IMG/VR virus record: IMGVR_UViG_2974538492_000001
Coordinates: 1-64,000 of that record
Reading direction: 5' to 3' (one strand)
From: a virus
Taxonomy: Duplodnaviria > Heunggongvirae > Uroviricota > Caudoviricetes
Length of the DNA stretch: 64,000 nt
Shown here: piece after piece, positions 30,856 through 64,000 of the stretch
Numbering within the stretch: the first letter of the stretch is position 1
Layout of the letters: every line of letters begins with the position of its first letter
Notes under the pieces: model-generated
Database searches by the model: none
What the model was told of the DNA's origin: nothing
Seen by the model: only the letters and a program-made list of their open reading frames with translations
Made by a program: the position numbers and the translations under genes

Positions 30856-31122
30856 ATGTATGCAATATATAGCTTTGAAGATTTGACTTATCATCATGAT
30901 TTTAGCTTGATCAAAAAGGGATTTAGTGATATGGAAACGGCAGAATCATTCAAAGCTGAACTTGAGTCTGGACGTTTTTCATCTGAATATCTAGCTGAAT
31001 TAGTTGTATGCAAAGAACTAAAAACTCATGATAACGAAGAATCTAACATCGGATTTGATAAAGAAGATATGATGGAAGATTATATTGAATTGGTTCACAA
31101 ATATTTTGGAGATGTAAAATGA
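30856..31122 (+). CDS. Hypothetical acidic protein, ~88 aa
   Basis: Internal ATG at 30856 with RBS ttatgaggttaactttATG, preferred over the ORF track start at 30793. Confidence 0.55.
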   Translation: MYAIYSFEDLTYHHDFSLIKKGFSDMETAESFKAELESGRFSSEYLAELVVCKELKTHDNEESNIGFDKEDMMEDYIELVHKYFGDVK

Positions 31123-32279
31123 ATACTGAAGTTATTTTTAATGATCTAATGAACTTAACGGCAACAAATGATGCCTTTATGTGGAAGGATTTTAAATCTG
31201 TTGGTGGTGGAAACTTCCGTATTTTTACATACCGCCTTGCAAGTTATACTGATTTTTTATCACCAAGTGCATTAGAATGTCGTGGTACAATGTTTGAGAT
31301 TTCTAAACATGATCATGATACTGGTTCATATCTTCGTGTAGCATCAAGAACTCCACAAAAGTTCTTTAATGCTTATGAAAACCCATTTACTATGTATGAT
31401 AAAACTACATTGAGTTCAGAAATTTCGGTTGTAATGGATAAACTTGATGGTTCTATTATTAGTACTTTTATGGATGTTGATTTTGTAGTACGTACTAAAT
31501 CACATGGATCGTTAGATTCTGAACATGCATATAATAGTACTGCACTGTTACATAAAGATAAAGAATTCTATGAAGAAGTATTTCAAGCAGAAATGTTCGG
31601 ATATACAGTAAACATGGAATATACTTCACCGGAATTTCGTATTGTTCTTCCTTATCAAGAAGATGATTTAACGGTATTGAATTTACGGCATCGTGCTAAT
31701 GGATCTTTGTTGATTGGTAAAGAATTAGAGGCTCAATTCCCATTACTTTATGCACGTTCTGTATTTGCAAAGTACGGTGAAATTGATAGTACTTTTCCAA
31801 TGCATGAAACATTATATGATAGTATTGAAGCTGTTCGTACTATGACTGATATTGAGGGTTATGTATTGATCCTTAATGATGGTCGTATGTGTAAGATTAA
31901 GACTGACTGGTATAGTGCATTACATTTTACAAAAGATAGTATTAATGTTGATTCACGTTTATATGAAGCAGTTATTGCTGGTGGTTCAGATGATTTAAAA
32001 CAATTATTTGGTACTGATCCTTATAGTCTTAAAAAGATCGAAAAAATGGAACAGCTTGTTTTTTCTTGCTATAATAAGTTAGTACATGATGTTGAAACGT
32101 TCGTAGAAGCGAACAAACACATGGAACGAAAAGACTATGCGTTAAAAGTTCAGGCTGAATTGCCTAATGAACTTGGTAAACCAGGTCTAGCATTTAATCT
32201 TTATAATTCTAAGCCCGTAGATTATAAAAACACTATGCTAAAATATATGAAGGATGTTCTTAAAGAATTCGAAGTTTAA
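31119..32279 (+). CDS. rnlA: RNA ligase 1 (T4 gp63/RnlA family)
   Basis: RIFTYRLASYTDFLSPSALECRGTMFE matches the T4 RnlA segment [27 protein letters not shown]; the lysine-containing segment MDKLDGSIIST sits where the adenylation nucleotidyltransferase motif is expected; GYVLILNDGRMCKIKTDWY matches GYVAVMKDGSHFKIKSDWY. Confidence 0.9.
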   Translation: MNTEVIFNDLMNLTATNDAFMWKDFKSVGGGNFRIFTYRLASYTDFLSPSALECRGTMFEISKHDHDTGSYLRVASRTPQKFFNAYENPFTMYDKTTLSSEISVVMDKLDGSIISTFMDVDFVVRTKSHGSLDSEHAYNSTALLHKDKEFYEEVFQAEMFGYTVNMEYTSPEFRIVLPYQEDDLTVLNLRHRANGSLLIGKELEAQFPLLYARSVFAKYGEIDSTFPMHETLYDSIEAVRTMTDIEGYVLILNDGRMCKIKTDWYSALHFTKDSINVDSRLYEAVIAGGSDDLKQLFGTDPYSLKKIEKMEQLVFSCYNKLVHDVETFVEANKHMERKDYALKVQAELPNELGKPGLAFNLYNSKPVDYKNTMLKYMKDVLKEFEV

Positions 32280-32777: not shown

Positions 32778-33002
32778 ATGAAAGTAGAAGTTCAACACAG
32801 TATTGTACAAGACATGTCGGTAGTTAAGTTTTTATCTTTAAAAGATTATCACCGAGCACTTGACTTTTTAGACAAGAATGGGTTATCATGGACACCTCTT
32901 AAATATAGTTCTCGATTAGACACGGCGAGTATTCGTGTATCAGAGCATGTATTAACAATAATCACTGATAAATTTGGAATAGGAAAATCATGCCAACATT
33001 AA
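32778..33002 (+). CDS. Hypothetical protein, 74 aa
   Basis: RBS aaaggagatttccATG. Confidence 0.65.
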   Translation: MKVEVQHSIVQDMSVVKFLSLKDYHRALDFLDKNGLSWTPLKYSSRLDTASIRVSEHVLTIITDKFGIGKSCQH

Positions 33003-33916
33003 CATTAACAGTTGGATTACCAGGATGTGGTAAAACCACATGGGCGAATGAGCAAGTTCGAACATCACGGTCTAAAACCGTGAATGTAAACCTTGATGAT
33101 GTTCGCCAAACAATGGCAGGTTCACATAGTAATTACAAGTTCCGCAAAGACAACGAACAGTACGTGCAAAACGCTCAGTACAGTGCAGCAGAACATGCAG
33201 CAGTTAATGGTTGGAATATCATTGTATCAGATACAAATTTAAACCCAACTGTTCGCAATAAGTGGAAAGAATTTGCTAAAAAATATAATTACACTTACAA
33301 AGAACATAGCTTCTTAGAAGAATATAAAAAAGATAAAACTTTCGAACATAATTTCTTTGCAGTGAAAGGGTTTGTTAAACAATGTAAAGAACGTAACCTT
33401 TTGCGTGAAAAATCAGTACCAGAAGATGTAATTGATGGAATGGCTGAAAAGTACTTCTATAATACAATGAAAGTTGAAACTTCAACGGTATTTGATTTGG
33501 AAGACGTAATCATTGTTGATATCGATGGTACTCTTGCACATATGGATGGTAAACGTGGTCCATATGAAGAAAACAAAGTACTATTAGATACTCCAGATTC
33601 TGAAGTAATTCTTTCAGTACTGGCTGAAAAGAACTATCTAGGTCGTAAAGTAATCGTCATGAGTGGTCGTCATGTAACTTGCCAAGAAGATACAGAAGCA
33701 TGGTTACAGAAGTACGGAGTACCATATGATCATATCTTCATGCGTAAAGCTGATGACAATCGTTCTGATGATATTGTGAAGTACGAGCTTTACATGGAAC
33801 ACGTACACAACAAATACAACGTTGCGAAAATCTATGATGATCGTGATCAAGTATGTTTCATGTGGCGGCATCTATTAGGTCTTAAAGTATTACAAGTTGC
33901 TGAAGGTAACTTTTAA
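32990..33916 (+). CDS. pseT: Polynucleotide 5'-kinase/3'-phosphatase (T4 PseT/Pnk family)
   Basis: P-loop GLPGCGKTTWA; phosphatase-domain DIDGTLAHMDGKRGPYE (DxDGT) and C-terminal DDRDQVCFMWRHLLGLKVLQVAEGNF, co-linear with T4 Pnk. Confidence 0.9.
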   Translation: MPTLTLTVGLPGCGKTTWANEQVRTSRSKTVNVNLDDVRQTMAGSHSNYKFRKDNEQYVQNAQYSAAEHAAVNGWNIIVSDTNLNPTVRNKWKEFAKKYNYTYKEHSFLEEYKKDKTFEHNFFAVKGFVKQCKERNLLREKSVPEDVIDGMAEKYFYNTMKVETSTVFDLEDVIIVDIDGTLAHMDGKRGPYEENKVLLDTPDSEVILSVLAEKNYLGRKVIVMSGRHVTCQEDTEAWLQKYGVPYDHIFMRKADDNRSDDIVKYELYMEHVHNKYNVAKIYDDRDQVCFMWRHLLGLKVLQVAEGNF

Positions 33917-37203: not shown

Positions 37204-37979
37204 AATATGTAAAAGTACTGGATATTCCAGATGAAAAAAATGTTTATATAATTGGTGATATTCATGGTAATTTTGAACTATTTCAAAAGACGTTACATGA
37301 ATTAGGAATTACTGATGATGATGTATTAATTAGTGTAGGTGATTTAGTTGATCGTGGTAGAAATAATTCTAAAATGTTATTTGAATTTTTGAATAAAGAA
37401 AACCGATATATGGTATTAGGTAATCACGAAGATATGATGATGCGTGGTCGTACTAGCCGTGAATGGTATTTCAACTGGTTACAAAATGGTGGACAAACTA
37501 CATTAGATGAAATAGGTTCACCTGGAATTAACCATTTTTGTACTTTACTTGAAGATGTACCTCATATTATTGAAGTTAATCATCGTGGGTATAAATTGGG
37601 AATTGCACATGCTGGGATTCCAAATTATCCAAACGTAAGTGATTGGGAAACTATAAAGAAATGGACAGAAGAACATGGTGATTATAGACATCAACTTCTT
37701 TGGGATAGAGATGCTATTCAAATGGCTCGATATGACTTTGAATTACCAGATAATGAAAAATTAGAAAGAATTATTTCTGGTGTTGACTATGTTATTCATG
37801 GACATACAGGTGTTCCTCATAAGTTTGCATTTGGTAATAGAGTATGGATTGATACCCAATTCCGTAGTGGTCAATTTACTATTGCAACAATTGATGATGA
37901 CCATTTAATGAAGTACTACACGGTTGTACCCGATGAATGGGGTGCAGAAGTTGGTTATGAAATAAAGGAAACAAAATAA
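37200..37979 (+). CDS. Ser/Thr protein phosphatase, lambda-PPase/PrpA family (calcineurin-like metallophosphoesterase)
   Basis: GDIHG, GDLVDRG, GNHE and a later GH motif, co-linear with lambda phosphatase. Confidence 0.85.
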   Translation: MKYVKVLDIPDEKNVYIIGDIHGNFELFQKTLHELGITDDDVLISVGDLVDRGRNNSKMLFEFLNKENRYMVLGNHEDMMMRGRTSREWYFNWLQNGGQTTLDEIGSPGINHFCTLLEDVPHIIEVNHRGYKLGIAHAGIPNYPNVSDWETIKKWTEEHGDYRHQLLWDRDAIQMARYDFELPDNEKLERIISGVDYVIHGHTGVPHKFAFGNRVWIDTQFRSGQFTIATIDDDHLMKYYTVVPDEWGAEVGYEIKETK

Positions 37980-38461
37980 TGCGTTTATATAGTATTACAA
38001 ATATGTACACTGATGGTATTCATGCAGGTATACAAACACAACATAGTACTGTTCGTTTATTCGTGAAGTATGATAAATCTCGTGGGGATTCTTTTCCACA
38101 AGAAGATATGTTATATGAATGGGCATACAATCATGAAACCACTGTAGTACTTAATGGTGGTATGCATGATTCACTTAAATCAGTACTTACAATTTTGGAA
38201 GAATGGGAACGACATAATGTAAATGAAGTACTTCCATTTGCACAGTTTTGGGAACCAGGTATTAACAATGCATTGACTAGTATTTGTATTATTATGCCAC
38301 AAGATGCTATTGATTTTATGTCTGAAATTCGTGCAAAGAAACCACGTAATGATATTATGACTCCTGAATATACAGAGTTATATCATAATATTCGAGTAGC
38401 ATATGGAAATCATGCTTTCAAATTATTTGAAACAGTTGCATTCTTACCACTAGCAAAATAA
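37979..38461 (+). CDS. Hypothetical protein, 160 aa
   Basis: TAATG coupling to the phosphatase gene. Confidence 0.65.
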   Translation: MRLYSITNMYTDGIHAGIQTQHSTVRLFVKYDKSRGDSFPQEDMLYEWAYNHETTVVLNGGMHDSLKSVLTILEEWERHNVNEVLPFAQFWEPGINNALTSICIIMPQDAIDFMSEIRAKKPRNDIMTPEYTELYHNIRVAYGNHAFKLFETVAFLPLAK

Positions 38462-38470
38462 GGTAAATTT

Positions 38471-39700
38471 ATGAGTACTAAAATCCCTGAGAAGTTTTAT
38501 GTTTCACGTGTATACCGTAGTACAGAAGAAATTCTAGGTTTCATGGTAGTTGCTGATAATGAAAGTACTAAGACATTTCAAAAAGCCAAAGAACGTGCTG
38601 ATAGTTGGACACATAATTCTTCTAATCCATTGTCCCCACTTTATGTTGATAACACTCCACGTTCTGGTTTCCGTTTAGTTACAAATGTAAGTCGTTATAG
38701 TACTTCCAATGTGGTATGGCGTATTATGCACCCTGAAGGTTTTGAATTTGAAATCACTTCTGATAACATGTGTGACCTTTTAGAAACTAATACTATTGTT
38801 GAAGGTGAATTCCAAGATGAATTATTCTTCACACACAATCGTAAATTAGTTAATCAGAAGACTAAACTCTTTGCTGAAATGATTCGTCAAGAAGAAAAGA
38901 AAAAAGAAACTATTGAAAAAGTTAAAGAATTAGAACCTGGATGTATTATTGCTGTACCTAATCAGTACAGTTATCGTAATCCACCACCTCCACCTGATAA
39001 GTATGTGTACTGTGGTAAGTTCCATTCTATTAATGTTAATAGTAATAACCCGATGGTTCTTGGAGCAAAGAGTTCTTTGCGTTATGTAGTTCGTGAAGTA
39101 AGTACTGGTAACTATTATTGCCTATCTAAAATTTCTAGTGAATTTACTGCGTTGAATATACATGAAGATATTGACCGTGAAAAGGTTATACGAGAATTCA
39201 ATGAGCAGATTCGTAGTGATAAGGTACATGTTGTACGTTATTATCAAACTGGATATGTGAAAAATGCAGTTGACCCAGTTCTTATTAATGAAAAACCATT
39301 TACTAAAGATAAATTAAAAATGGAATTCATTAAACAACCTATGAAAGATATTTCAGTAATTGATGATACAAAAATCTATGTTTATAATGAACAACGAGTT
39401 TTTGGATTCGGACTTATGAATAATGGTGGTCATTTGTATGTTAACACAGATAAAAATGCGTACAGTAATCATAGCATGGTAGCTTCTAAACTATTAGTAT
39501 ATCCAATTTCATCTATTGATGAATGTAATGTTCCTCAAATTAATGTTGATTTGTCTAAACATAAAGGAATTGATAATTATAATTCTAGTAGTTCTGCATT
39601 CGGAACACGAGATCGATATGGTCGTGTTGGTAATAATAAACCAGAATTGCGTTATGTAGATATTCCAGAAAACATTGAAGTAGGATATTACACTTTATAA
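38471..39700 (+). CDS. Hypothetical protein, 409 aa, with a poly-Pro segment (NPPPPPD)
   Basis: Large ORF, no motif recognised. Confidence 0.75.
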   Translation: MSTKIPEKFYVSRVYRSTEEILGFMVVADNESTKTFQKAKERADSWTHNSSNPLSPLYVDNTPRSGFRLVTNVSRYSTSNVVWRIMHPEGFEFEITSDNMCDLLETNTIVEGEFQDELFFTHNRKLVNQKTKLFAEMIRQEEKKKETIEKVKELEPGCIIAVPNQYSYRNPPPPPDKYVYCGKFHSINVNSNNPMVLGAKSSLRYVVREVSTGNYYCLSKISSEFTALNIHEDIDREKVIREFNEQIRSDKVHVVRYYQTGYVKNAVDPVLINEKPFTKDKLKMEFIKQPMKDISVIDDTKIYVYNEQRVFGFGLMNNGGHLYVNTDKNAYSNHSMVASKLLVYPISSIDECNVPQINVDLSKHKGIDNYNSSSSAFGTRDRYGRVGNNKPELRYVDIPENIEVGYYTL

Positions 39701-39745: not shown

Positions 39746-40591
39746 ATGCCAAGGAAACAAATTATAAAAAAAGAACTCAATGATAAATTTTATACAAATC
39801 CAAAAATAGCAGAATATTATTTTAATGAATTGAAAAATATTTTACAACAATTTAATATTAATGTTGACTATTTCGTCGAGCCTAGTGCGGGTTCGGGGTC
39901 TTTTTCATCATTATTATCAGAAAATGATTTTGCATTTGATCTAATTCCTGAGCAACTATATGATGGAATTTTAATAAAAGAGCAAGATTGGTTTACTGTA
40001 ACTGAAAATGATTTAAAAGATGGTAAAATGTGTATTATTGGAAATCCACCATTTGGAAATAGAAATGATTTATCAAAAGGTTTTATTAAACATGCTTGTA
40101 AATTAAGTACTTGCAAAGTTATCGCATTTGTGCTACCATCTGTTTTTGATAAATTAACTATGCAAAAAGTATTTAATGATGAATGGAAATTAATCTATAA
40201 TAATTCGTTACCAGAAAATTCTTTCATTTTAGATAGTGATCCTTATCATGTACCGTGTGTATTTCATGTATGGGTGAGAGATACCGAAGATGAAATTTCA
40301 ACAAATTTGCGTGAAAAAGAAATTCCATTAGAAAATGGCATCATTGAATTTTGTTCAAAAGATGAAGCTACACATTTTGTTTTTGGGGCTGCACCACATA
40401 AAGTCATTGACAAAGATGCAGTACTAAGTAATAATAGAGGGTATTATTTCAAGTGTATAATGAATGAAGATAATGTAGTTGATTTATTTCGTACTATTTC
40501 TTGGAAAGACTACGGAAAAAGTTCAGTAAACGGTGGCGTATTTTGGGTCACTAAACAACAAATCGTAAAAATTATAACCAATATAGGATAA
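39746..40591 (+). CDS. gamma-class N6-adenine DNA methyltransferase (TaqI/Eco57I-like)
   Basis: FYTNPK (like the ETPP motif X), FVEPSAGSGSF (motif I, SAM binding), IIGNPPFG (motif IV), in the gamma-class order. Confidence 0.75.
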   Translation: MPRKQIIKKELNDKFYTNPKIAEYYFNELKNILQQFNINVDYFVEPSAGSGSFSSLLSENDFAFDLIPEQLYDGILIKEQDWFTVTENDLKDGKMCIIGNPPFGNRNDLSKGFIKHACKLSTCKVIAFVLPSVFDKLTMQKVFNDEWKLIYNNSLPENSFILDSDPYHVPCVFHVWVRDTEDEISTNLREKEIPLENGIIEFCSKDEATHFVFGAAPHKVIDKDAVLSNNRGYYFKCIMNEDNVVDLFRTISWKDYGKSSVNGGVFWVTKQQIVKIITNIG

Positions 40592-60076: not shown

Positions 60077-60165
60077 TTTCTGGCCTGTTTTGATATAAAC
60101 AACATAAATAAGTTTACAATAATAAAAATATTTTTGACTCCATGTTGTTTATATTACATTCTTTA

Positions 60166-60191
60166 AGGCCAACGTAAGTTGGCCTTTTTTA
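60166..60191 (+). terminator. Rho-independent terminator
   Basis: ttaaGGCCAACgtaaGTTGGCCttttttatt. Confidence 0.8.
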
Positions 60192-60928: not shown

Positions 60929-61144
60929 ATGACAATATTTGTAATTCTTGGAATGTTATTGCTGTTTTTATTTGGTTTGGCAGCGACTGTTGGAAGTATA
61001 GTTTTGATATTCTTCTCATCAATGTTTGGTGGTAAAGTTAGTACTGGTGAATTATTATTTGGTATATTTTGGATCTGCGTTGGTTCATATTGTTTGTACT
61101 ATGTATTTTCAAATATAAATTTTAGTATTAATATAACGGGATGA
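60929..61144 (+). CDS. Small membrane protein, 71 aa, 2 TM helices
   Basis: IFVILGMLLLFLFGLAATVGSIVLIFF and LLFGIFWICVGSYCLYYVF. Confidence 0.6.
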   Translation: MTIFVILGMLLLFLFGLAATVGSIVLIFFSSMFGGKVSTGELLFGIFWICVGSYCLYYVFSNINFSINITG

Positions 61145-61148
61145 TAAA

Positions 61149-61283
61149 ATGGGCGAATTGATTTTTGCATTAGTAGAATGCTTAATTGAAATATTGTGTA
61201 TGGGTGCCTCAGTTCGTTGGTTTTTTGGATTACTATTATTATCTATAGCTATTTGTGTTGGTTATTATACCTATATTATGTAA
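61149..61283 (+). CDS. Small membrane protein, 44 aa (MGELIFALVECLIEILCMGASVRWFFGLLLLSIAICVGYYTYIM)
   Basis: Not in the ORF track; starts 5 nt after the previous stop; hydrophobic. Confidence 0.4.
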   Translation: MGELIFALVECLIEILCMGASVRWFFGLLLLSIAICVGYYTYIM

Positions 61284-61360
61284 GGATTAAAAATGAAACT
61301 ATTTACAAAAGGACGTATGTCATTTCGATTATGAATTTTAAATCATAATAAGGAGGACAT

Positions 61361-61903
61361 ATGTTCTTTAATCAGAAATTTAAAATCTTCTATGATAACG
61401 GAAATGTAGTTGAAGTAGATGATTTGTTAGAATACATTGGTAATGCATATGGTGCTGCTGAAACATTCTACTTACGTATGAAGTTTACTATAAAAGTTGA
61501 TAAATCAAGTTTTTGGAGTTCTTTATGCTTTAACGAAAATTGGCATGTAAAAGATTTGTTCTTATACACTGAAAACAATATCATGATTTCTCCTGAGTTG
61601 TTTAAAGGTGAATATTTAAAACATCGTACCGATTATATGAATATATGGTACAGAAATCGTAAGTATTCCATGATGCAATGGAGGCATTTTCATTTCAAAC
61701 GTGGTCATACATCAACGTATGAACGTAAAATGGAAACGATAGCTGAACGTAGGGCAATTGCTGGTGTAGTAAAAGAAGAAGGTGAACCAGAGTTTCGTGG
61801 TCGCCGCCGTTGTATCCCACATCCGTGGGATGACATAATGGCTCGTCGCAGTCTTTCTTGGAAAGATTGTACTAAAAGAAAACGTCAACATAAAGGAAGC
61901 TAA
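61361..61903 (+). CDS. Hypothetical protein, 180 aa, basic C-terminus
   Basis: RBS aataaggaggacatATG. Confidence 0.7.
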   Translation: MFFNQKFKIFYDNGNVVEVDDLLEYIGNAYGAAETFYLRMKFTIKVDKSSFWSSLCFNENWHVKDLFLYTENNIMISPELFKGEYLKHRTDYMNIWYRNRKYSMMQWRHFHFKRGHTSTYERKMETIAERRAIAGVVKEEGEPEFRGRRRCIPHPWDDIMARRSLSWKDCTKRKRQHKGS

Positions 61904-61917
61904 TGCTTCCTTTTTTC
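61895..61917 (+). terminator. Rho-independent terminator overlapping the stop codon
   Basis: aaGGAAGCtaatGCTTCCttttttcat. Confidence 0.7.
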
Positions 61918-61931
61918 ATAGAAGATATATA

Positions 61932-62756
61932 ATGAATTCAGATGAACTACTACTAGCTCGTAAACTTTTAAACAATTTAACTATTGAAAATAGAAATTTT
62001 ATTGTAACTCGTGACCTATCACGCGATATCCCTTCTTATGAAGATTGTAGATATCCATCACATTTAATTAGTTGGCTACATTTAAATAATTTATTAGTAC
62101 TGTTAAGTAGCTACCCAATTGATGATGATGAACGTTATTTTATTGAAATTTTTAAAATTACTGATTTGGGTAGTACTATTACATGGTTTACTGAATTACT
62201 TGAACAATACAATAAAGGAATGGATGGGGAACACGAATTTAGATATACAGGAAAATTATTGTATACTATATTACATAACTTCAATGAACTAGAAGTAGAC
62301 CCTGTTATTCAATTAATAACTGATGAAGAAAAAGAAGCATATCAACATTTTTACCGTACCCAAGTTTGGGATTCGACCGTTAAAGAAACAAAGACTTATA
62401 CACGTGAAGAAGCATTACAAACAATTGAATTTAATAAAGGTTTACTTTCTATGTTTGAAATGTCAGTACTTTTAGGTGCACGTGGTACAGATCCTACCCG
62501 TACAAATAATTATGTTTTCAAAAAATGTATGGAAGAATTGGGTGAAATGGCAGTAGAAGATCAAATTGAAAATGGTCTTTCATATAAAGATGCTGGCAGT
62601 GATGGTGTTGCTGGTGAAGCTGTAGATCTTGCAATTTGTGCAATGGATATGTTTGCCTTGCAGTATGGACATTTAAATCCAGAAGAAATTCAAGAGAAGT
62701 TTATCATTTATATGAATAAAAAATTAAACAAATGGAAAAATACTTTAGGAAAATAA
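61932..62756 (+). CDS. Protein with C-terminal MazG-like NTP pyrophosphohydrolase domain, 274 aa
   Basis: MEELGEMAVEDQIENG...EAVDLAICAMDMFALQYG resembles the MazG EExxE / ExxD metal-binding helices. Confidence 0.6.
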   Translation: MNSDELLLARKLLNNLTIENRNFIVTRDLSRDIPSYEDCRYPSHLISWLHLNNLLVLLSSYPIDDDERYFIEIFKITDLGSTITWFTELLEQYNKGMDGEHEFRYTGKLLYTILHNFNELEVDPVIQLITDEEKEAYQHFYRTQVWDSTVKETKTYTREEALQTIEFNKGLLSMFEMSVLLGARGTDPTRTNNYVFKKCMEELGEMAVEDQIENGLSYKDAGSDGVAGEAVDLAICAMDMFALQYGHLNPEEIQEKFIIYMNKKLNKWKNTLGK

Positions 62757-62757
62757 T

Positions 62758-63033
62758 ATGACGGATCATACAACAACAAAAGCATTAACTGATGTTTTAG
62801 CAGAAATGAATTCCCAAGATGAAAAATGGGGGGCTGACAGAAATCAACATCCATTTTTATGGCACGTAATTCTAAGTGAAGAAGTAGGGGAAGTTGCTCA
62901 AGCGATTTTACATGATGAATTTGGTGGTGACCATGCTGGTACTGCACGAGAAGAACTTGTTCAAGTCGCTGCTGTGGCCTTGCAAATCATTGAACAGTAT
63001 GATAGACTACAAAAAGAAAATGAGGAAAAATAA
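62758..63033 (+). CDS. MazG-like nucleotide pyrophosphohydrolase, 91 aa
   Basis: LSEEVGEVAQAILHDEFGGDH...ELVQVAAVALQIIE; all-alpha NTP-PPase signature. Confidence 0.7.
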   Translation: MTDHTTTKALTDVLAEMNSQDEKWGADRNQHPFLWHVILSEEVGEVAQAILHDEFGGDHAGTAREELVQVAAVALQIIEQYDRLQKENEEK

Positions 63034-63302
63034 TGATAATTCGTCCAGTACATAATCATATAATTGCAAAAAAACATATAAATGAACCTAAAAGTGCTGG
63101 CGGGATTTTATTAACTGCAAGTGGTGAAGATGAATCAACCCATGCTGAAGTGTTAGCAATTGGTTCTGCATTTAAAGGTAATGTAAAAGTTGGTGATATT
63201 ATCACATATAGTGATGATAAACGTGTTCATACTGAAAAAATTGAGAATGAATATCTATTAATTATGCCAGAAGATTGTGTACTGGCAGTTATTGAAAAAT
63301 AA
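63033..63302 (+). CDS. GroES-type co-chaperonin (T4 gp31 functional analog or GroES homolog)
   Basis: IRPVHNHIIAKK...SAGGILLTASGEDESTHAEVLAIGS...VKVGDIITYSD...EYLLIMPEDCVLAVIEK follows the GroES pattern (GGIvl...geVvAvG...VkvGD.V...yl.l.e.DilAv.e). Confidence 0.8.
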   Translation: MIIRPVHNHIIAKKHINEPKSAGGILLTASGEDESTHAEVLAIGSAFKGNVKVGDIITYSDDKRVHTEKIENEYLLIMPEDCVLAVIEK

Positions 63303-63311
63303 GGTTATACA

Positions 63312-64000
63312 ATGCATCCAGTACTAGTAGAATTACAAAATCGTGGTCTAATTAATCAAAGTACTGATATTTCAGTACTATCTTCTTTACTTGACAATGG
63401 CTCATCAGTGTATTGTGGATTCGACCCAACTGCTGATTCATTGCATATTGGCAGTCTATTACCACTAATGACTATGAAAGTACTAAAAGAATATGGTGTT
63501 AATGTTATTGCACTAGTTGGTGGAGCAACAGGTCGTATTGGCGATCCAAGTTTTAAAGCTCAAGAAAGAAAATTGCTTGATGAAGCTATGGTAGAACATA
63601 ATATTGCAGGTATTACAACACTAATTCGAAGTTTTCTTGGTTCTGATACAGTTATTGTTAATAATTTTGATTGGACTAAAGATCTTTCAGTACTTGACTT
63701 TTTACGTATCTATGGTAAATGTTTTTCTGTTAATACTATGATTTCAAAAGAATCAGTTCGTTCTCGTATCGAACGACCAGATCAAGGTATTTCTTTTACC
63801 GAATTTACTTATCCAATTTTACAAGGTATGGATTTTGAACATCTATATAATGGTGGATGTGCCATTCAGATTGGTGGGTCAGATCAGTGGGGTAATATGA
63901 TTGCCGGAACAGATCTTATTCACAAAATGCATGGAAATGACAAGCAATGTGGTGTTATAACACTTCCATTATTACTAAAATCTGATGGTACTAAATTTGG
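63312..64000 (+). CDS. tyrS: Tyrosyl-tRNA synthetase, N-terminal catalytic domain; truncated at the window end
   Basis: YCGFDPTADSLHIGSL (HIGH motif), VIALVGGATGRIGDPSFKAQERKLL, GISFTEFTYPILQGMDF, IQIGGSDQWGNM and LLLKSDGTKFG are near-identical in pattern to E. coli TyrRS; RBS ataaggttatacaATG. Confidence 0.9.
   Translation, partial: MHPVLVELQNRGLINQSTDISVLSSLLDNGSSVYCGFDPTADSLHIGSLLPLMTMKVLKEYGVNVIALVGGATGRIGDPSFKAQERKLLDEAMVEHNIAGITTLIRSFLGSDTVIVNNFDWTKDLSVLDFLRIYGKCFSVNTMISKESVRSRIERPDQGISFTEFTYPILQGMDFEHLYNGGCAIQIGGSDQWGNMIAGTDLIHKMHGNDKQCGVITLPLLLKSDGTKF

Follow-up and report, generated by a model that had tools for sequence, protein, structure and literature searches.

The locus

We begin by considering the end of the window, by which we mean the whole stretch of DNA analysed here, the first 64,000 nucleotides of a Caudoviricetes virus record (IMGVR_UViG_2974538492_000001). 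The reading frame that begins with the ATG at 63312 continues without a stop up to the window end, and its product, g118, is a tyrosyl-tRNA synthetase (TyrRS). The features that surround it, and two RNA repair genes located far upstream, are collected in Table 1.

Table 1. Features at the TyrRS locus and the RNA repair genes of the window
Feature	Position	Strand	Description
T4 Rnl1-type RNA ligase	31119..32279	+	PF09511, PF20819; phrog_562, E 2.6e-104
PseT-like polynucleotide kinase-phosphatase (PNKP)	32990..33916	+	PF25109, E 1.9e-44; PF13671; phrog_505, E 6.3e-99
Terminator-like hairpin with T run	60165..60186	+	Upstream of g111
g115, MazG-like C-terminal domain	61932-62756	+	phrog_1247, E 2.2e-19
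g116	62758-63033	+	phrog_24212, E 2e-49; XbC2 orthologue annotated MazG-like
g117, GroES-like co-chaperonin, 89 aa	63033..63302	+	PF00166 (Cpn10), E 3.6e-13; phrog_3188, E 2.7e-22
Shine-Dalgarno-like TAAGG/AAGG	63300..63304	+	8 nt upstream of the TyrRS ATG; overlaps the GroES stop; annotated ribosome binding site in the record
g118, TyrRS gene, N-terminal part	63312..64000	+	229 codons and 2 nt inside the window; HIGS, GGSDQWGN and the residues that bind Tyr, all in the Rossmann-fold catalytic domain

The TyrRS gene starts 9 nt past the stop of the GroES-like ORF, a gap too short to accommodate a leader or a T-box. The GroES-like gene is probably co-transcribed with the TyrRS gene, and g115 and g116 are part of the same tightly packed co-directional block (61932..63033). 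Between the terminator-like hairpin upstream of g111 and the TyrRS start there is no further hairpin of this kind and, judging only from this absent intervening site, g111 to g118 may form a single transcription unit. A promoter scan is uninformative, with 30 promoter-like matches against 33 +/- 6 in shuffles. There is no ORF of at least 40 aa on the opposite strand beneath the TyrRS frame, and there are no tRNA genes within the 64-kb window.

The complete gene and its product

By megablast, positions 61000-64000 of the window are 100% identical to the genome of Yersinia phage fHe-Yen9-04 (LT960551 / NC_042116) at the same coordinates. This virus is a jumbo phage of the genus Eneladusvirus with a genome of 354,378 bp, of which the window is bases 1-64000. 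In the full record the gene occupies 63312-64577 and encodes an uninterrupted protein of 421 aa that is annotated as "tyrosyl-tRNA synthetase". A frameshift or stop shortly past the window end, which the earlier note had named as the sign of a pseudogene, is absent: the frame stays open to the stop at 64577, and this rules out the reading as a pseudogene or relic.

The 229-aa fragment in the window is already matched by PF00579 (tRNA-synt_1b, E 2.4e-53), by TIGR00234 (236.3 bits) and by solved structures of bacterial TyrRS (E 1e-67 to 1e-62), well past what chance would give. In the full-length protein, PF00579 covers residues 32-318 (E 1.4e-70), followed by the C-terminal domain PF22421 at 339-416 (E 2.4e-15) and an S4 domain, PF01479, at 349-382 (E 3.3e-5). 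The tyrS equivalog model TIGR00234 (EC 6.1.1.1), whose cut-off is 113.8 bits, gives 338.4 bits over model positions 7-404 of 406, and the PHROG family of tyrosyl-tRNA synthetases, phrog_9270, aligns its profile positions 3-420 of 421 with residues 2-419 (E 3.1e-167, 557.8 bits). The gene product is confirmed as an intact bacterial-type class I TyrRS that is cut solely by the window edge, in agreement with what the earlier note had read from the truncated frame.

The gene itself is already known: it is annotated for fHe-Yen9-04 in GenBank/RefSeq, it has a PHROG family, and it appears in papers on this phage group. The paper on phage CBB (2017) proposes a pairing of the TyrRS CBB_132 with a tRNA gene of the phage and a role in tRNA repair for rnlA (PMC5259590), the paper on Erwinia Eneladusviruses (2020) counts TyrRS among the features of Rak2-like phages (PMC7760394), and TyrRS is the only aminoacyl-tRNA synthetase (aaRS) that either paper lists for the group. 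In huge phages, Al-Shayeb et al. (2020, PMC7162821) describe as many as 15 aaRS and suggest that these charge the tRNAs of the phage. The view that such enzymes are rare in phages is right in general but does not extend to this jumbo group (PMC5259590, PMC7760394), and in huge phages aaRS are common (PMC7162821). The literature searched yielded no biochemical or genetic data on any phage TyrRS. What the present analysis adds is that the HIGS motif is normal, that the gene looks like part of an old clade of jumbo and huge phages, and that the phage over-uses tyrosine; otherwise there is nothing new.

Catalytic residues and the HIGS motif

The three motifs recognised in the window are located at aa 45-48 (HIGS), 70-79 (GGATGRIGDP) and 188-195 (GGSDQWGN). 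The KMSKS-type loop has the sequence KFGKS at aa 228-232, K228 and F229 being the last two residues inside the window, and in the full record both this loop and the S4-like C-terminal tRNA-binding domain are intact. The active site was aligned with a reference sequence of the Geobacillus stearothermophilus TyrRS, the numbering of which agrees with the published residue numbers. The residues of this enzyme that bind tyrosine and ATP (Y34, D78, K82, R86, Y169, Q173, D176, D194, Q195, K230 and K233) are conserved in g118, and those from Y34 to Q195 are identical in g118 and the five isolate orthologues. Across 26 phage-type sequences, with identities down to 44%, the columns Y34, D78, K82, R86, Y167, Q171, D174, D191, Q192, K228 and K231 are invariant, a pattern that would be expected under purifying selection on catalysis.

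The HIGH signature of g118 is HIGS, with the first histidine kept and a serine at the fourth position. This serine is present in all six isolate orthologues, and H[IV]GS is found in 108 of 108 motif-matched members of the best 120 database clusters, the remaining 12 giving no match to the search pattern. To see whether the motif is a mark of an inactive or a phage-specific enzyme, one genome per bacterial species was scanned for stretches that code for PTADSLHxG(S)L. At least 120 matches were obtained; all 120 listed translate to H[IV]GS, and 118 of them align with g118 at E values no higher than 2e-10. Among the sources of the matches listed are Bacteroidota, Planctomycetota and Cellvibrionales, and they include the genera Chryseobacterium, Tenacibaculum, Mucilaginibacter, Pirellula, Cellvibrio, Vogesella, Chromobacterium and Paenibacillus. 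Going by these translations, HIGS is a common natural variant in the housekeeping TyrRS of many bacterial phyla. Two readings of the motif are rejected by the scan: as a mark of lost activity, since all the listed bacterial matches carry H[IV]GS, and as a phage-specific signature, since ordinary bacteria have the same motif.

Phage DNA and the isolate orthologues

The next question is whether this stretch might be host DNA joined to a phage contig, which the earlier note had raised as a chimeric join. The gene has a GC content of 32.5% and a GC3 of 17.5% in surroundings of 30.4% GC; E. coli tyrS, with E. coli serving in all host comparisons as a stand-in for Yersinia, has 51.5% and 59.5%. The adjacency of a GroES-like gene and the TyrRS gene, in this order, is also seen in Serratia phage BF, Pectobacterium CBB, Cronobacter GAP32, Xanthomonas XbC2 and Erwinia Kaldavass, so that six isolate phages including fHe-Yen9-04 share it. 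The isolate orthologues are 72-87% identical over the window fragment and 60-76% identical over the full length, with synonymous sites already saturated at 76% protein identity, and close relatives in IMG/VR (at least 56% identity) occur only on contigs of 355-378 kb. Host DNA misassembled onto a phage contig is rejected, because at least six isolate phage genomes have this gene at the corresponding position and because the full-length identity to E. coli TyrS is only 41%; the GC3, the synteny and the viral contigs together exclude the chimeric join. Taken as a whole, an explanation by artefact or relic, whether as a pseudogene beyond the window or as misplaced host DNA, has nothing in its favour other than an ORF cut by the window; set against the intact frame, the phage-like GC3, the synteny in isolates, the length of the IMG/VR contigs and the distance from E. 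coli TyrS, its probability is practically nil.

The TyrRS of fHe-Yen9-04 and that of its sister phage fHe-Yen9-03 differ at 19 positions, and 18 of these are in aa 273-300. In tblastn searches no TyrRS match was found in Klebsiella or Escherichia phage records, where related RaK2-type phages are expected; TyrRS is thus not universal even among related jumbo phages and is dispensable for that lifestyle. This null result for Klebsiella phages is at odds with the CBB paper, according to which RaK2 shares the TyrRS (PMC5259590).

Origin of the phage TyrRS

The best 120 database clusters match g118 at 373-915 bits. E. coli TyrS reaches 311 bits against g118, to which it is 41% identical overall, the Rossmann fold having 52% and the C-terminal domain 20% identity. 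The 120 clusters are split in two. Clade A contains the isolates together with metagenomic contigs of 250-378 kb, and clade B contains "HVGS" relatives that are 44-49% identical to g118. The latter could be regarded as cellular donors of the phage gene, but the five genomic contexts sampled from clade B are phage-like, and one of these contigs is listed in IMG/VR. The sampled contigs are 57-800 kb long and carry mostly small ORFs without Pfam matches; two of them (P0055 and P0080) in addition encode a T4-type RNA ligase, a nucleoside deoxyribosyltransferase and a head maturation protease, which on P0055 matches phrog_53 at E 7.5e-34.

A neighbor-joining tree was constructed from 30 cellular sequences and 15 sequences each of clade A and clade B, with 100 bootstraps, the cellular sample being taken among the bacterial matches listed with the addition of E. 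coli and G. stearothermophilus. Clade A is recovered in 100, clade B in 99 and the union of the two in 100 of the 100 replicates, and the E. coli TyrRS groups with other Proteobacteria outside this union. As sister of the phage clade, a proteobacterial group appears in 49 of the replicates and a Bacteroidota/PVC group in 45. By a neighbor-joining tree with a small cellular sample, then, g118 looks like a member of an old lineage among jumbo and huge phages and not like a recent capture from an enterobacterial host.

The phage tRNA-Tyr and the demand for tyrosine

We turn our attention to the tRNAs that the enzyme could serve. The fHe-Yen9-04 genome has 33 annotated tRNA genes, 28 of which are called by ARAGORN, all of them at 271-322 kb. 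The 28 represent 19 amino acids together with a CUA tRNA, and no tRNA-His is called by ARAGORN among them. A phage tRNA-Tyr(GUA), for which the earlier note had proposed a search, is present at genome positions 318878-318959 (46.9 bits with the Rfam tRNA model). The identity elements of bacterial tRNA-Tyr are G1-C72, A73, the GUA anticodon and the long variable arm, and in the Rfam register all four are present in the phage tRNA. The alternative ARAGORN register (U1-A72, C73, encoded CCA) finds no support in the Rfam model and was set aside in favor of the Rfam/annotated register, which gives U8, G1-C72 and A73. The phage tRNA shares its anticodon loop, CUGUAAA, with E. coli tyrU; its variable arm reads GCC-UUCG-GGC, versus GUC-ACA-GAC in E. 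coli. A 95% identical counterpart is found in BF and the Erwinia Eneladusviruses. In the phi92-like phages, which lack a TyrRS, there is a tRNA-Tyr that shares this body and likewise has a variable arm capped by UUCG, so the host enzyme is evidently able to serve such a tRNA.

In 155 long phage ORFs tyrosine accounts for 5.28% of 32,264 residues, and in two samples of E. coli proteins for 2.48% and 2.67%. Among the 20 amino acids, this enrichment of about two-fold is the highest in one of the comparisons, and in the other it is exceeded only by that of asparagine. The phage tyrosine codons are TAT in 1226 and TAC in 361 instances. That tyrosine is among the two amino acids most over-used relative to the enterobacterial proteome offers a simple reason for carrying a TyrRS. 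Asparagine is as enriched as tyrosine (2.06x), however, and no AsnRS was noticed in the approximately 172 kb of the genome that was read, on either side of positions 72-260 kb; demand alone is therefore insufficient to explain the choice of tyrosine.

The function of the phage TyrRS

Combining the information on the enzyme, the tRNA and the proteome, we consider it probable that g118 is an active canonical TyrRS that raises the charging capacity for tRNA-Tyr during infection. According to this model, the phage enzyme would activate tyrosine with ATP in the infected cell and would charge tRNA-Tyr(GUA) with it, the host's as well as the copy encoded by the phage. Since an AT-rich phage that turns the cell over to the synthesis of phage proteins would approximately double the demand for Tyr-tRNA, a second synthetase and an extra tRNA-Tyr could meet this demand, and the additional charging capacity would serve an AT-rich, tyrosine-rich phage proteome. 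The activity of the enzyme, the tRNAs that are charged and charging capacity as the selective benefit are what we infer from the sequences. Observations against this model are that phi92, with a tRNA-Tyr of the same type, manages without a TyrRS, and that Klebsiella and Escherichia phage records gave no TyrRS match.

While it is possible that the protein has a non-canonical role, binding or sequestering tRNA-Tyr or moonlighting (in RNA chaperoning or splicing as does the fungal mitochondrial TyrRS CYT-18, or in the synthesis of dinucleotide polyphosphates) without contributing to aminoacylation, we find this very unlikely. The altered HIGH motif would point in this direction, but HIGS is normal in many housekeeping bacterial TyrRS. 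Likewise, chains of the CYT-18 type appear among the distant PDB matches (E about 1e-32), but ordinary bacterial TyrRS chains are matched far better (E 1e-67). The genome also holds several odd tRNA-like annotations of 114-126 nt and many HNH endonucleases, which could be read in favor of an RNA-related side activity. The residues that form Tyr-AMP and those of the KMSKS loop are invariant across the phage clade, and this conservation of all catalytic residues in a clade diverged to 44% identity contradicts the earlier suggestion of mimicry or sequestration of tRNA-Tyr. A different proposal, which brings the protective role suggested in the earlier note up to date, looks to tRNA-targeting defences: the phage TyrRS would keep a nuclease-resistant phage tRNA-Tyr charged while host defences destroy the tRNA-Tyr of the host, the candidate defences being PtuAB of Septu or retron-Eco7, with its cut in the variable loop, and anticodon nucleases like colicin E5. 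We regard this as unlikely, even though several features agree with it. The C-terminal domain, which in bacterial TyrRS binds the long variable arm (PDB 1H3E, the complex from T. thermophilus), shows the fastest evolution within the phage protein, with 57% identity between fHe-Yen9-04 and BF versus 86% in the catalytic domain, and with the low identity to E. coli given above. The phage variable arm differs from that of E. coli at the reported cleavage site. Experiments have shown that PtuAB of Septu and retron-Eco7 depletes E. coli tRNA-Tyr through cutting of the variable arm and that a phage tRNA-Tyr rescues infection (PMC11555353, PMC13096335), so tRNA-Tyr is a proven target. Against the proposal, the phages T5 and T6 evade PtuAB with the tRNA alone and without a TyrRS, phi92 has a near-identical tRNA-Tyr body and the UUCG variable arm without its own synthetase, and the phage tRNA keeps all the bacterial identity elements, so that the host TyrRS should charge it.

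The presence of Rnl1 and PNKP in the same genome might be added in support of a role in defence, and the earlier note had located both genes, correctly as the Pfam and PHROG matches show, and proposed that they act with the TyrRS to protect the tRNA family with QUN anticodons. This proposal is unsupported here. The repair genes are 30 kb distant in fHe-Yen9-04, and no linkage between TyrRS and repair genes is found, the conserved TyrRS neighbors being GroES and MazG-like genes; on one clade-B contig only is an Rnl1 gene located 3 kb from the TyrRS gene. A set of phage tRNAs that spans 19 amino acids and CUA but shows no called tRNA-His argues against a focus on QUN, and a cleaved tRNA is not something that a synthetase can mend. 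With the same anticodon loop as E. coli tyrU, the phage tRNA-Tyr is not shielded from a cut of the colicin-E5 type, and this also removes the anticodon nucleases from the list of defences that could be evaded. A more specific arrangement, in which the TyrRS and the phage tRNA-Tyr are a co-adapted pair that would sustain translation under variable-arm cutting by PtuAB, with a C-terminal domain tuned to the UUCG-capped arm, we hold to be more doubtful still; if true, it would be the first case of a synthetase as an anti-defence accessory. The reading that we retain is an active TyrRS that would add charging capacity for tRNA-Tyr.

Comparison with known synthetases

Compared with the bacterial housekeeping TyrS (E. 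coli, PDB accession code: 1X8X; G. stearothermophilus, PDB accession code: 2TS1), g118 agrees in its three-domain architecture and its catalytic residues, the Rossmann domain being 52% identical, and like these enzymes it should form Tyr-AMP and then transfer the tyrosine to A76 of a type II tRNA-Tyr. It differs from them in having HIGS where they have HLGH or HIGH, a variant that many bacteria also have, in a C-terminal domain that is just 20% identical to that of E. coli, and in being virus-encoded, in a strongly supported clade apart from the sampled cellular sequences. The TyrRS of Mimivirus, a giant virus of eukaryotes, is likewise virus-encoded; it is of the archaeal/eukaryal type and unrelated in origin.

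The TyrRS of the other jumbo phages (GAP32_131, CBB_132, BF gp125 and those of the Erwinia pEa_SNUABM phages, XbC2 and Kaldavass) have the same length, the same order of domains, the HIGS motif, a KFGK[ST] loop and the position after GroES, and g118 has no substantive difference from them. Like g118, the aaRS of huge phages (PMC7162821) are phage-borne synthetases that accompany large sets of phage tRNAs, and the sister clade of g118 is found on phage-like contigs of 220-800 kb. Whereas huge phages have up to 15 aaRS, the TyrRS is the sole aaRS in the approximately 172 kb read here.

Phage-encoded TyrRS and its carriers

We begin by comparing the tyrosyl-tRNA synthetase (TyrRS) of Yersinia phage fHe-Yen9-04 with that of the sister phage fHe-Yen9-03. 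Of the 19 positions at which the two proteins disagree, 18 lie in the helical domain, in the segment from residue 273 to 300 (coordinates of this and the other features are collected in the table). Both versions of this segment are similar to other orthologues, and judged from the sequences it looks like a short recombination patch rather than a frameshift. Of the two genes preceding the GroES-TyrRS pair, g115 resembles MazG in its C-terminal domain (phrog_1247, E 2e-19), while g116 is MazG-like by the annotation of its orthologue in Xanthomonas phage XbC2. In a huge-phage contig of clade B (TyrRS 44-49% identical to the query), TyrRS likewise has a MazG-like gene in its neighbourhood, at a distance of about 3 kb.

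Features of the TyrRS and tRNA analysis (L001, L002 and L003 are stretches of the fHe-Yen9-04 genome)
Feature	Location	Phage genome	Remarks
MazG-like genes g115 and g116	window 61932-63033		immediately upstream of GroES-TyrRS
TyrRS residues 273-300	L001:6129-6212	64128-64211	directly beyond window end
tRNA, CUA (amber-reading) anticodon	L002:32524-32596	292524-292596	73 nt
Four 'tRNA-Pseudo' / 'tRNA-Undet' annotations	L002:19229-19347, 37922-38035, 38745-38870, 39755-39875	279-300 kb	
tRNA-Tyr, fHe-Yen9-04	L003:8878-8963		
Five tandem paralogues, 'regulator of chromosome condensation' (RCC1-like)	L003:37518-43255	347518-353255	minus strand
tRNA-Tyr, Serratia phage BF	L195:11-95		
Clade-B TyrRS carrier, L190	ENA ERZ28635336 scaffold_1		801,531 bp
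Phage-collection records with TyrRS	OR847352, OR847353, OR851397, OR844993, OR846598, several MT83xxxx		MT83xxxx: 'Bacteriophage sp.'

Scaffold L190 encodes an R2K ATP-grasp protein, RdgC, MYG1 and SIR2 around its TyrRS, with most ORFs giving no Pfam matches, and this gene content looks phage-like from sequence. A phage of 735 kb was reportedly described in 2020, and L190 would exceed it if it is a single replicon; alternatively, the scaffold could be a misassembly or an element of another kind. Several short, unannotated entries in the phage collection, whose labels name Listeria, Salmonella, Staphylococcus or Enterococcus phages or gut 'Bacteriophage sp.', also contain TyrRS genes (40-52% identity to the query); these records look like host or bacterial DNA deposited under a phage label.

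The tRNA genes

We turn our attention to the tRNAs, among which HNH endonuclease genes are scattered. The phage nearly avoids TAG as a stop codon: in the window, L002 and L003, the 145 long plus-strand ORFs end in TAA (117), TGA (27) or TAG (1). The CUA tRNA has two acceptor-stem mismatches, its nearest phage tRNA being that for Trp (67% identity). It is a possible amber suppressor, and could read through host genes that end in TAG. The four 'tRNA-Pseudo' / 'tRNA-Undet' features are 114-126 nt long, and ARAGORN makes no call at any of them; they could be degenerate or intron-containing tRNAs, or tRNA-like elements. Close to the right end of the genome, the RCC1-like array is encoded on the strand opposite to nearly all other genes.

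For the tRNA-Tyr gene of fHe-Yen9-04, the register given by ARAGORN is at odds with that of Rfam and tRNAscan. The tRNA carries an A7xC66 mismatch and ends in A-CCCA, without a cleanly encoded CCA, whereas its orthologue in phage BF has a G7-C66 pair and ACCA.
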